From Octopus vulgaris (Eukaryota), in NCBI GenBank assembly GCA_951406725.2, contig OX597828.1, positions 7,378,001-7,442,000 on the forward strand: DNA of 64,000 nt. The letters run 5' to 3'. The position numbers and the translations under genes are program-made. The notes below the pieces were generated by a model. The model was not told the DNA's origin. It ran no database searches and was given only the letters and a program-made list of their open reading frames with translations. Positions 2,290 to 24,982 of the stretch are shown here, one piece after another; the first letter of the stretch is position 1, and the number at the start of each line of letters is the position of its first letter.

Positions 2290-2343
2290 ATATAACTATG
2301 CATGTTTGAGGGTGTGTGCGTGTCTCTGCTTGAGAGTGTGTAT

Positions 2344-2383
<40 letters not shown>

Positions 2384-2615
2384 TTGTGAGTTTATTTTGA
2401 CGTCACTCGATTGAAATACCAATATCCCGTATCTTAGGATCTTTGCCACATGTGTACTCTGTACGTGAACGTGCAAACGCACGCGCACACATCCACACGC
2501 ACGCACGCATACACTCACTCACACCCCTACACACAGGTAACATAGACAGATACACACATAGACTCAGACACCATCCTATCGTCCCATTTCAACGTACATA
2601 ATCTTCATAATCGTA

Positions 2616-2643
2616 TGATGACGACGACGACGCCAACGACGAC

Positions 2644-2685
<42 letters not shown>

Positions 2686-2762
2686 CATGATGATGATCAT
2701 GATGATGATCATGATGATGATCATGATGATGATGATGATGTGATGATGAGGCGATGATGATG
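2616..2762. repeat. (GAT)n/(GAC)n microsatellite
   Basis: Read directly from the sequence. Confidence 0.95.
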
Positions 2763-2992
2763 GCGGTAGCAATGACACTGTCAGTTGGGAATTAGGTTCG
2801 GCATTTCATTGTTCTGAGTTCAAATTCCATTGAGAGACTACTACTTGTCATTCCGACTCACCTGGGATCGATATCTTAAGTCCCAATGAATGCCAAAAGC
2901 AACTGTAAGTTTGATATGTCATTGTTTTTTCGCTTTTTGCTATATTTATTATCTTCCGACCTTTCTTTCCCTCCTCTCTACTCTCTCCCTCT

Positions 2993-3072
<80 letters not shown>

Positions 3073-3457
3073 GGAGAGAGAGTGTGGGAGAGAGTGAGAT
3101 TGCGAATAGAGATATTAATAATGTCTAGTTAGATATTCGCGTATATTTACCTGCATGCAAAAATGTACCTGCGCATATACGTACGTGTATGTATGTATGT
3201 ATGTATGTATGTATGTATGTATGTATGTATGTATGTATGTATGTGTGTATGTATGTATATATACATGTACACACACACACATATGTACATTCATGTAAAC
3301 AGGCATTTACGTGTGCATATATATATAAGTATGTATGTGTGCATGTATGTATGTATGTACATACTTACGCATGTATGTATACAACAAAGGCATATATACA
3401 TAAATGTATATATGTATATACATACATACATATATACATACTTATATATATATATAT

Positions 3458-3498
<41 letters not shown>

Positions 3499-3501
3499 TA
3501 C

Positions 3502-3556
<55 letters not shown>

Positions 3557-5604
3557 TATATGCATATATATATGTGATAGTGTCTCTACTTATATAAGTG
3601 CCTACCTGGGCATATATGCATATATATATATGTGATGGTGTCTCTACTTATATAAGTGCCTACCTGGGCGTTAGTGTACGAGTGTGTGTGTAGTTAAATG
3701 TGTGCATGCTTGCATGTGTCTTGATAATATATGGAATTGGTTATACATTCTCTACCAGCAGACCTAAATACAAAATAATACTCCGTCTGGACAGATATAT
3801 GAAATATGGCGTCTCAAAGGGGGAAGAAACCAATCCTTTTTACTGATACAACAAACGCATTGATTTATCGCACTTGTTGGAGACAGGTGGAATTCTGATT
3901 GATTAAATCAGCTGGAGACATATTGTGGATGGGCCGCATTGTAGTGTAATATTGCTGATTACAAAACACTATCGTTGTGCTGATTTTCACTAAAAGCTCT
4001 GATTTGGATTTATTTTTCAAGTTTGCTTTACCTCTGAGGTTTGGTTATTCTTTGAGCAAGCTATTGGTAAATTGATTTATAACATGGGTACAAGGTCACG
4101 TATATGGTGTTGTGTGTGGGGATCGTGAAATCGATTAGAGAACTGCAACCATTGTCCTGTTTTCTGTAATATTTTTTTTTCTATTTTTGTTTTGTTTGTG
4201 GGGCGCCCAAAGCCGACAAAAAATGTTTTCAATAAATTCAATTCAAACTTTAGTAAAAGTAAAAAAGTACATAAAACACCACTCGCCCTGTCTGAAATAC
4301 AAACTATCAAATACTAGCTTAAAAGATGCACTTGTACGGACTTTAAAGCTGCCGTGGAGCGCTAATTGGGCCTGTGGCCCAAAACTAAAGAGGTCTATTT
4401 TCCTCTTTAGGGGACAATAAATAAAGCATTTATCGGTACCCTGTCAATATTGTATTACTTTAAATTCAGCTTAAATGAAAAACTTGTATGTTCACAAATT
4501 TCTGGAGTTTTTATAAAATTTGAATTGTTAGCGTATAACAAATCCTCACCCAGACCTGATTCCAATGCTGGATGTTCAAGAACCAAAATGAAAGGCAGAT
4601 GTTCAATCTCGGGATCATCCTGATAGATATAAGAAGTAAAAATAGATTACATAATGTGACTGGGATAAAGAAAAAAAACCCGCATGACTGAATGCAGAAA
4701 TATCATCGTGATTCAAAAAAAAAGGACCTGTAACCCATTTCTAGGCTACATGAGTCTTATAAGTTCTCAGTTATACTTTTTTTATAATCTCCTCTCTGGA
4801 AGGATGAAGAACGCAATTACAAAACGACGATTTATAGACTTATAGCTTACAAAAAATAAACGTAACAAGATAGTATATGGCGTATTCTCTGACGCTATAT
4901 CAAGTCTGTCAGTTATGATGCAAAGTATTACAAAGTTGTAATAAATCATAAGAGGGTATCAGGTGTATTACACGTCCAACATTAGTGTCTTTCTGTTCGT
5001 AAGCTTTCGTGACATGAAAATGTCTAAACAGGCTTAATATACATATTATAAGTTTACATAACATTCAGTGTTATGTAGGTTAATAATATACATAATATAT
5101 GCTTGTTTCAATGTACATTTCTCGAGTGGCTTTCAGTTCAGTCAATTTGCATCACTTTATGTAAATTTATTGCTATTAACGTGTGGCTCTCAACCTTCTA
5201 TATTTCAACAATCCTTTCACATTTCATAGAACGCTCTTTCCCAATGTTTAGTATCAAAAATTGCTCATAATACACTTGTATGCATAGGCAACCTCGCAAT
5301 CAACTTTTGGAAGAAAAAAGGCCACTTACAAAAACACACAGTATACAGACATATAAACAAGCTTAAAAAGATATATATTCAAGTACATGCAAACCTAGAA
5401 GCATATTTACCCGCGTACTGAAATACAGAAACCCACACTAACATAAATATGTTCGAGTATATACTGATTGTTTATATAGACAAATGCACTTATAAAACGT
5501 ATGTCTATGTATATGATATACATATATTATACGTGTATGCACACACACATACACACACACACACATATTTACATATATACATACATCTCTCTCTATCTAT
5601 CTCT

Positions 5605-20949: not shown

Positions 20950-22151
20950 CAATATCGTAAAAGAGGTTCGTTGCAGTTACCAATAGCATCAATAGTCGAA
21001 ATATATAAGTTGGGGAAGATACGGACGGTCATGATGCTGAGAGAATCGAAGGATATGGAAATCAGGCGTAACCCACCAGAGGTGAAAATAGCCAGGAAGT
21101 GGAAAGCAGAAGCAGAAACTGACAACATCTTGTCTTCTCTTATACACAGAGATATGGTGGGAGCAACGCAGAACCATCGGAAAGGATTTGGTTTTGGCGC
21201 AGATCAGTTCAGACCGTTTGCAAGCATGATGCAGTGTGAACGCAGATCTGTTGTTAGCAACAGCGTCAAAACAAGAGAAGCAGAGAGAAGAGGGCTTCAT
21301 TTGATCCGATGTGTTCATCAAGGTCAGATGACGAGATGGGAAGAACATGTTGAGAGGAAGATAAGTTGGGATGAGATGTGGAAGTGGACGACATCTCGGC
21401 TGAGTTTCCTGATTCGTTCATCTTATGATGTTTTGCCATCACCTACGAATCTAGTAAGATGGAACGTCTTAGAGAATGACATCTGCAAATGTGGAAAGGT
21501 CGGTACACTAAAACATATTCTTTCCAACTGTTCATTAGCATTGAACAGGTACACATGGAGGCACAACTTGGTCCTTAAGGTTATCTTCAATGCTATAAAG
21601 AACCAAATTCATCTCAACAACACTGAGGAAAAATCGTTAAAAGTACCATCAAGAGAGTTCATTACCTTCGTGCGATCAGGTCAGCAGATCCGTTTCAAGA
21701 AGAAGACCAAGAAACTTCCTGAGAAAAATGAAAAGTGGAACGGCTATTGGGAAGTAACTGCAGATTTACCTGGGTGCCAGATTTTCTTTCCCATCCCAGT
21801 TTCGAAAAAACCAGATATTTTGATGTGGTGTGAAAGAAAGAAAGTTGTAAATATAGTCGAACTAACGGTTACTCACGAAGATAATATGGACGCCGCTCGA
21901 GCTCGAAATTAAACCGTTATGAAAACCTCCTCGAGGAATGTGAAGACGCAGGCTGGAAAGCGGAACATTTTCCTATCGAAGTCGGATGTAGAGGGTTTGT
22001 AGGACACAGCGTGAGACGACTGTTGTTATCGTTAGGCCCAACTCATCGTAAAGTCAATACCACCATGACTGATATCCAATCTACAGTGGAGAAGGCTAGC
22101 CACTGGATTTGGTTAAAAAGAGACGATGAGCGATGGCTAGAAGTATATTGA
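20950..22151 (+). pseudogene. 5'-truncated RLE-type non-LTR retrotransposon (HERO-like): post-RT region, CCHC knuckle and restriction-like endonuclease
   Basis: ORF 20971-21912 has CKCGKVGTLKHILSNC, RYTWRHNLVL and KPDILMW..IVELTV.HE. After a 1-nt frameshift at ~21907 it continues LNRYENL..GWK..FPIEVGCRGF..EKASHWIWLKR to TGA at 22149-22151. Clade assignment is from recalled motifs. Confidence 0.85.
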
Positions 22152-22171
22152 GTTCTTCATAACCAGCTGAT

Positions 22172-22298
22172 CTAGCAAGCGGGGCCTCATATCAGTGAGG
22201 GGGGCCGGTGCGCATTGATGCCGTCGAGAGGTAGGCCCCGAAACGGCGCGCATTCTCTCCTGATGACCCTATACACTTGCTAGCTTCCGATATACGGA
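22172..22298 (+). ncRNA. Structured retrotransposon 3' UTR containing hammerhead core segments in non-canonical order
   Basis: Closing helix CTAGCAAG/CTTGCTAG; GCCGTC|GAGAG (22220-30); GGCCCC-GAAA-CGGC (22234-47); CTCTC-CTGATGA-CCCT (22255-70). Confidence 0.6.
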
Positions 22299-22379
22299 GT
22301 TTTTAACTGATAGCACTTGCATGTGCAAGTTGTTTGCAAGACATATATTCACTGCAAAACTTCATGTATGAATATATGC

Positions 22380-23718: not shown

Positions 23719-23918
23719 TTGTGTGTCTGTATTTGTTCTCCCAACATCGCTTGACAACCGATGCTGGTGTGTTTACGTTCCCGTAAATTAGCAGTTCGGC
23801 AAAAGAGACTGATAGAATAAGTACTAGGCTTACAAAGAATAAATCCTGGTGTCGATTTGCTCGACTAAAGGCGGTGCTCCACCATGGCCACAGTCAAATG
23901 ACTGAAACAAGTAAAAGA
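23502..23918 (+). mobile_element. SINE family C, full length
   Basis: tRNA-like head TGGCTGTGTGGTA..GGTTCCGGGTTCAGTCCC, internal (TA)(TG)n, LINE-like tail. Confidence 0.9.
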
Positions 23919-24982
23919 GTCTTGGGGCCACTGATGTTTATAGTGGCCCTTTCAAACATGCCTTCAGTTGCTACGATGACCACCCTTGCTAGCTATGCAG
24001 ATGACACAAAAGTCTCTCACGCAATACAAAACCCTGAAAATATTGCGCATCTGCAACAGGAGTTGGATACAATATACAGGTGGGCTGAGGACAACAACAT
24101 GCAGTTTAATGCAGGTAAGTTCCAGGCCCTGCGCTACCGGCACACAAAGGTAAACGACGTGTAGACTGGATACACTGGCCCAGGAAGAATTGCAATCCCT
24201 GAGTCAAAATCAGTGCGTGACCTGGGCATTGACATGAGCAATGATGCATCTTTCCAAGTGCATATTGCTAATCTGGTGATAAAATGCAGACGGCTAGCTG
24301 GATGGATTCTCCGAACTTTCAGAACAAGAGAGAAGGAGACACTGATGGTCCTATGGAAAACATTCGTCCTCATCCGCTTGGGCTACTGCTCCCAACTGTG
24401 GTCACCACACAATATAAAACTAACAGCAGAACTCGAAGCAATTCAGAGAAGCTACACAAAGAAAATCGTCTCAATGCAAAATATCAGCTACTGGGAAAGA
24501 TTGAAGGTATTAAACCTCTTCTCCCTAGAGCGGAGGCGGGAGAGATATGCGGTGATATGCATCTGGAAAATCCTGGAGGGTCTTGTCCCAAACTTTGGCA
24601 TTCAAAGTTACCCTAACCGCAGAATGGGGCGCCACTGCATGGTGCCAAGGATTCCAAATCACCATCAAAATACAGGTCCAGATACTGCAACAGCTTGGGT
24701 TTCAGAGGACCACAGCTCTTTAACATCCTCCCTAAATGCCTAAGAGACTTACATGGTGTGGATGTGGGTTTCTTTAAAACTAAACTGGATCTCTTCTTGT
24801 CGGGAGTCCCAGATGAACCTACCTCACGACAGGAGACGCAGATGCGGGCAGCAGCATCGAACGCCCTTGTTGATCAAGTGCCACGTATCAGAGGTGGATT
24901 CACAAATTAGTGTAGCTCATTCAGCGGTGGTGCCCCAGCATGGCCGCGGCCTTCGGGCTAAAATATTTTTAAGGATTTAAGG

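Follow-up and report, generated by a model that had tools for sequence, protein, structure and literature searches.

Hammerhead ribozymes with a non-circularly permuted strand order have already been published, as the initial annotation of the locus described here had indicated (PMC10085705). In that work, Eckert et al, 2023 cut the hammerhead into the blocks C, G, and S, each assumed to be uninterruptible, and validated type SGC. According to the accessible parts of the report, genomes of known organisms were without the motif save for one bacterial type-GCS candidate.

The motif analysed here is located in the 3' UTR of a LINE within a 64,000-nt stretch of Octopus vulgaris DNA, which we term the window. 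It has the same core as type-SGC (HRIMA-1), type-CSG, and type-GCS hammerheads and the same mutually crossing stems I, II, and III; with type SGC it further shares the S-G-C order of the core words and a short linker between stem I and stem II (PMC10085705). In contrast, the strand following CUGAnGA, which forms stem II in the Eckert types, is engaged elsewhere: Stem II takes its 5' strand from upstream of block S, and a predicted P1/P2 junction stands in place of the A9-G10.1 bond. The break in block C falls between A9 and G10.1, which puts the motif outside the six arrangements of Eckert et al. Moreover, their examples, as far as the accessible text describes them, stem from metatranscriptomes, metagenomes, and one bacterium, keep block C intact, and have no tie to a retrotransposon, whereas the LINE motif is part of one (PMC10085705).

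Host LINE and split-core motif

The LINE copy in the window spans about 20953-22344 on the + strand, the strand of all features given below. It is dead, being 5'-truncated and frameshifted, and its ORF carries one 3-nt and one 1-nt deletion. The remaining 3' third of the ORF (20953-22151, stop at 22149-51), which by inspection contains the CCHC finger and restriction-like endonuclease region, is 98% identical to positions 2343-3735 of the unit in the full-length copy L032. This complete element has a unit of 3737 nt with a single ORF of 1175 aa. Its best solved-structure matches are R2 proteins, and its named protein homologues come from fishes and lancelets. Pfam detects just RVT_1 on the full ORF; the CCHC finger and endonuclease motifs were assigned by us from inspection and are presumed to be such. 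Judged by its sequence, the element is a restriction-like-endonuclease non-LTR retrotransposon, with a single ORF in which the RT precedes the CCHC finger and endonuclease, and with 5'-truncated copies. It is a putative HERO element, a label that stems from the initial annotation. Insertion flanks of 100 sampled copies are varied, several being (TA)n, and target-site duplications occur in 11 of them, several of these within simple repeats. The varied flanks fit the insertion habit of HERO elements, described in the accessible text as mostly non-specific with some microsatellite preference (PMC4640811).

The family is young: A 26-nt tail pattern occurs 1021 times exactly in the genome, corresponding to more than 1000 copies. 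The 30 nearest genomic copies are 98-100% identical and consequently yield no covariation. Downstream of the element, the window contains ORF fragments that by inspection resemble another, decayed LINE-type reverse transcriptase (23787-24743). In the 5' UTR of L032 (2300-2420), L086, L089, L094, and others, three to four short GGAAAGAC-type repeats are kept across very diverged families, with a possible role in translation or protein binding.

The initial annotation had placed all three hammerhead core strands behind the LINE stop codon, enclosed by a closing stem, and these elements are all found: GCCG-UC-GAGAG at 22220-30, GGCCCC-GAAA-CGGC at 22234-47, CUCUC-CUGAUGA at 22255-66, and the outer closing helix P0 between CUAGCAAG (22172-79) and CUUGCUAG (22276-83), which delimits the domain at 22172-22283 and has similar predicted helices in relatives. 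The core comprises GAAA (G12-A15.1, 22240-22243), invariant in the alignment of relatives, and CUGAUGA (C3-A9, 22260-22266), invariant except for N7; these two words served as search anchors, the NUH cleavage triplet did not. Stem I pairs GAGAG (22226-30) with CUCUC (22255-59) over 22226-22259 and is backed by covariation. Stem III, within 22208-22253, is formed by GCCG (22220-23) and U22224 with A22243 and CGGC (22244-47), as seen in the sequence, in relatives, and by covariation; its extension GUGCGC (22208-13)/GCGCAU (22248-53) was assigned by inspection. From U16.1-C17 and the NUH rule in relatives, cleavage is predicted between C22225 and G22226 (22224-22226). The 3' tail (22284-22344) reaches to the insertion end, about 119 nt beyond the predicted cut.

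Stem II is formed by GGGGCC (22201-06) and GGCCCC (22234-39), spans 22201-22239, and shows compensatory changes in relatives, with the G10.1-C11.1 pair kept. Its 5' strand lies upstream of the cleavage block, giving the strand order stem II 5' strand, cleavage block, GAAA block, and stem I with CUGAnGA. Both CCCU and GGCCC had been proposed to pair with AGGG-GGGCC. This holds for GGCCCC with GGGGCC, whereas the most likely partner of CCCU (22267-70) is GGGG (22181-84) rather than AGGG (22198-201). The resulting helix P1 (22181-22270) uses the strand right after A9, which reads CCCU in the window copy and CCCC in most genomic copies. Hairpin P2 (CCUCA-UAUCAG-UGAGG, 22185-22200) is placed flush between P1 and stem II in the predicted folds. 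When the core was forced open in folding, this layout of a helix and a flush hairpin appeared in 25/31 relatives compared to 21/1860 flank shuffles, two of the 33 relatives having too little flank; in 6/31 the junction is not predicted. A9 and position 10.1 are not joined directly; as the strand after A9 pairs upstream and P2 abuts stem II, a helical junction replaces the A9-G10.1 bond.

Two other assignments were rejected. A canonical type-SGC stem II using the strand after CUGAnGA pairs in 41.8% of cells compared to 38.2% in shuffles, with the first pair present in 3/34 sequences and at least four pairs in 2/33. An upstream CAGUGA, considered as a second block C (type CSG), belongs to hairpin P2 and is not conserved in most relatives.

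The order is non-circularly permuted and, in agreement with the initial annotation, is not that of type I, II, or III. In the suggested Rfam search, neither hammerheads nor other ribozymes were detected, be it in the region itself, the whole window, 14 relative loci, or nine loci first scored as motif-less. A descriptor of the arrangement, composed after the motif had been seen, matches once in the window, at the motif, and in 0/40 dinucleotide shuffles of the window and 0/20000 shuffles of the local 161 nt. Plain MFE folding of the region, a method that cannot model pseudoknots, does not contain the motif (z -0.29). A viroid hammerhead reportedly tolerates one extra base at the A9/G10.1 position. 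Insertions into the hammerhead core are covered in PMC3088659, with none at A9/G10.1 in its accessible text, and in the literature searched we found no report of a hammerhead opened between A9 and G10.1 that was shown to cleave.

Conservation and covariation in relatives

Relatives were collected by alignment of the C-terminal protein part, keeping the best 80 of 278 confirmed stretches, which gave 79 metagenome loci with 29-54% identity; their contigs are collapsed repeat assemblies. Other families of the octopus genome were seen through the protein search alone. No relatives were found among viral contigs, and prokaryote genomes gave a single 809-bp contig without the 3' end. After leaving out 11/79 loci with less than 120 nt past the stop, 68 UTRs were usable. 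In the 330 nt behind the stop, 47/68 carry GAAA and then CUGAnGA, compared to 1.3% in shuffles. Stem I, stem III, and the upstream stem II are also present in 41 of these 47 anchored loci (41/68), compared to 1.5% of 9600 upstream shuffles; an upstream stem II of at least four pairs by itself arises in 38% of shuffles if its placement is free.

The cleavage block was located through pairing alone, with neither U nor H imposed by the search. Nevertheless, the triplet is NUH in 33/33 non-redundant relatives: The doublet is UC in 14, UU in 12, UA in seven, and UG in none, so that N17 is never G. N7 varies freely (U 18, C 9, G 3, A 3), and the 10.1-11.1 pair is G-C in 27 and G-U in four. In a MAFFT alignment of these relatives and the window (34 sequences), 93.1% of 332 cells pair compared to 66.7% in shuffles and 36-48% in slid registers, percentages that are inflated because the set was picked with the pairing descriptor; the sequences are also related to one another, as a tree of them shows. 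Two-sided changes occur at 9/10 pairs. For stem I, three pairs were tested, with 98% of cells paired and every pair changing on both sides. Two pairs of stem II were testable, and compensatory changes are seen at the pair next to 10.1-11.1. Stems I, II, and III with covariation surround the CUGAnGA, GAAA, and NUH core, and the relatives bear out the initial annotation: The core is kept and the stems change in a compensatory manner.

A model built from this alignment was applied to the window plus 43 loci, most of which the alignment does not contain. It found further motif copies, some 600-750 nt from the stop, and also matched older families of the octopus genome. A subclade that had seemed motif-less mostly carries the motif at the end of a 600-750-nt UTR, and this class was dropped. 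L071, L076, and L093 represent a lineage with such a UTR and the ribozyme near its far end. The model gave no match in L083, L093, L098, L100, L103, L131, L138, and L139; of these, the sequences of L093, L103, and L131 terminate before the UTR is complete, and that of L083 part-way through the motif.

The hammerhead-like fold is almost certainly real. The motif is real and clade-wide and apparently undescribed. Conservation and covariation across diverged relatives back the earlier proposal of a rearranged ribozyme, with cleavage as its predicted activity, and self-cleavage after C22225 appears likely. The same proposal had named a recognition fold for the RT as an alternative. The fold would then be hammerhead-derived but non-cleaving in vivo and serve as a 3' UTR handle for the element protein, and its position suits a LINE recognition element. 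However, the conservation obeys catalytic rules, with N7 free, N17 free but never G, and G8 and G12 fixed, which makes a non-cleaving recognition fold less likely than a cleaving ribozyme.

Terminal repeats and the replication template

The initial annotation overlooked head-to-tail terminal repeats of the element, which give the ribozyme a role. The 27-mer at the 5' start has 26 genome-wide matches. In front of 25 of them lies a piece of the element's own 3' end, 21 to 1973 nt long (24 of 25 if only independent loci are counted, as L054 and L055 share flanks). In full-length copies, the tail passes into the 5' start without a gap at the seam, and the seam has one fixed spacing in all tail-preceded copies printed. 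Of the upstream pieces, 21/26 extend beyond the cut site and none ends at it. Both repeats were available at 19 loci, where the upstream copy matches the downstream one in 119/125 subfamily-site comparisons, compared to 64% across loci. Thus, both repeats were made together from one kind of template, as in LTR elements.

Run-on from the tail through the 5' UTR into the ORF start is also present at 10/79 metagenome loci, and four more carry the motif at both unit ends; as these assemblies are collapsed, they prove only that the seam exists. The unit is also covered by assembled contigs of four sequencing runs, three presumed to be RNA and one DNA, and two contigs begin in the tail and cross the seam; as ends, strand, and circles are not readable from contigs, these were left out of the evidence. 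No locus with two complete units was found among those examined. Few are expected, because about 26 of more than 1000 copies complete one round.

The upstream pieces might have inserted independently at a later time, with the 5' start of the element as their target, since the last tail bases overlap the first start bases at the seam. Yet 25/26 starts have a piece in front of them, nearly always a single one that matches in subfamily and is of similar age, and just 2/96 sampled 3' ends sit at such a site, which renders this origin extremely unlikely.

Insertion 3' ends were scored in 96/100 copies. They peak 3 nt beyond GCAAGA, scatter across the seam by up to 9 nt, and keep matching the 5' start with 0.49-0.77 per base across the next five bases. 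This bears on the non-cleaving handle. In such a scheme, the RT would form the repeats by jumping from the true 5' end to the 3' end of another RNA at the seam; the staggered insertion 3' ends, however, stand against the fixed spacing of the seam in all tail-preceded copies printed. In its favour, copies read straight across the cut site, and two lineages retain the seam without a detected hammerhead (L098/L100 and L139). Cleavage of a linear RNA about 119 nt from its 3' end would moreover part the priming end from the ORF, a puzzle given the copies that read through. Overall, we regard the non-cleaving handle as unlikely. The read-through puzzle is resolved for a cleaving ribozyme by the upstream 3' piece that full-length copies carry.

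L139 (1142-1620) has the head-to-tail seam, and in its UTR neither a hammerhead nor an Rfam match was detected. L100 (2745-2885) and the same stretch in L098 contain, between the ORF end and the 5' repeats and hence in the slot of the hammerhead, a stretch that we call twister-like on the strength of consensus words. A descriptor written after seeing this stretch matches 0/3000 shuffles and only L098 and L100 among 79 loci; its cleavage strand departs from the consensus and there is no Rfam match, leaving the twister-like stretch as a lead only.

Alternatively, the ribozyme may cleave while the unit RNA stays linear, with the RT priming internally, reaching the 5' end after about 119 nt, and continuing by an end-to-end jump on the cleaved 3' end of either the same molecule or a different unit RNA. 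End-to-end template jumping is a property of the R2 RT, and the repeats, the seam, and the subfamily match would be explained without a ligase. With such jumps, numerous copies should end at the cut, and a few additional bases would be expected at this point. In contrast, one of 100 unbiased copies (L271) starts exactly at the cut site and 90 continue past it; a pile-up of 5' ends at this site was looked for in the 100 sampled copies and is absent, and 0/84 motif-spanning copies carry an insertion as a scar. We therefore judge a linear template with jumps to be quite improbable, despite the start of L271. This low frequency of starts at the cut is compatible with a circle and equally with no cleavage.

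Long linear transcripts could instead span the upstream piece and the whole unit and be inherited as such. Cleavage would then only trim or regulate a part of these transcripts, perhaps to initiate cap-independent translation, which self-cleavage alone can drive (PMC13725137). Three young loci share a 5-G run upstream and a 6-G run downstream, a point in favour of such inheritance. The G-run is hypervariable, however (among 84 copies, a single position has 15 deletions and 25 insertions), so that the 5-G/6-G difference was dropped as a marker, and one young locus shows the reverse pattern. Upstream pieces passed on in this way could only shrink with each generation and the repeats would drift apart, whereas they are subfamily-matched. 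Inheritance through long linear transcripts is consequently very unlikely.

The template has no break at either the predicted cut or the seam, and the upstream repeat does not erode but is formed anew; all three features follow from a circular unit RNA. From these sequence patterns, we lean towards circular unit RNA as the template of reverse transcription. A ribozyme that cuts over-length transcripts to units, which are ligated into circles for rolling-circle reverse transcription, is on balance the best explanation overall. Once its upstream 3' piece measures at least about 175 nt, a copy would carry two ribozymes 3737 nt apart, transcribed from an upstream, putative promoter. Cleavage by both would release a unit RNA with a 5'-OH and a 2',3'-cyclic phosphate, whose ends might be joined by a host tRNA ligase such as RtcB; in vitro, RtcB circularises hammerhead-cut retrozyme monomers, according to the accessible text of PMC7229834. 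The element protein would then nick target DNA and prime internally about 119-125 nt downstream of the ligation site. Most cDNAs would end after a few hundred bases, while the few that complete the circle would continue into another round and thereby restore the upstream ribozyme. What look like the 5' and 3' ends of the element would mark the internal priming point and not RNA ends. Translation of the circular unit RNA would have to be cap-independent, and self-cleavage by itself can drive such translation in other systems described in the accessible part of PMC13725137.

Several further copies deviate from the complete unit. L042, L046, L048, L056, L061, and L063 have internal deletions, each different, with the upstream repeat kept; these are likely RT skips and possibly seeds of non-autonomous retrozyme-like derivatives. 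Among the sampled copies (L175-L274), 55/100 end 200-500 nt upstream of the tail pattern, close to the lengths of upstream repeats, and some of them may be solo repeats from recombination. In L078 (2005-2514), two head-to-tail elements that are only about 70% identical are joined via the usual seam, representing an inter-family template switch or a chimeric assembly.

Taken to the clade level, the evidence leaves a broader proposal evenly poised: The whole clade of autonomous LINEs may replicate via a protein-coding circular RNA made by a seventh, split-core hammerhead permutation, with the annotated 5' and 3' ends as an internal priming site and the rolling circle rebuilding an LTR-like repeat in each generation. 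If true, a hammerhead architecture would exist outside the six permutations thought possible, and non-circular permutations would be present in a eukaryotic genome in more than 1000 copies, invisible to Rfam. This LINE group would be seen to replicate through a circular template instead of a linear RNA whose 3' end is defined, LINEs would be linked with retrozymes and viroid-like circles, and a gene-insertion system templated by circular RNA might result. Even without the circle, a covarying fold and near-universal terminal repeats demand an explanation.

Comparison with known retroelements

In the literature searched, we came across neither the motif nor any HERO element described as having hammerheads, circles, or terminal repeats; the repeats could be mentioned in Repbase Reports, subscription journals, or bioRxiv supplements, which lay outside this search. 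The accessible parts of PMC4640811, PMC13580325, PMC6155905, PMC11662667, and bioRxiv 10.64898/2026.07.22.740005 do not describe the motif.

The proposed cycle resembles that of animal non-LTR retrozymes (PMC7229834) and plant LTR retrozymes (PMC4918200), in which tandem hammerheads cut out a unit RNA; this is circularised and, presumably, reverse-transcribed. Retrozymes are, however, short, non-coding, and non-autonomous and use type I or III hammerheads (PMC7229834), whereas the LINE is 3.7 kb long and autonomous and encodes its own RT and endonuclease in the 1175-aa ORF. Penelope-like elements are likewise autonomous and carry a ribozyme in their repeated end (PMC6155905). Unlike the LINE, they have a GIY-YIG endonuclease, an RT of a different lineage, and minimal hammerheads of ordinary order, as far as the accessible text goes (PMC6155905). 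R2 is related through its single ORF with RT and restriction-like endonuclease, and its ribozyme frees the element RNA from a longer transcript (PMC13580325). In contrast to the hammerhead motif in the 3' UTR of the LINE, R2 is described in the accessible text as having an HDV-like ribozyme at its 5' end, a linear RNA, and specificity for rDNA (PMC13580325).
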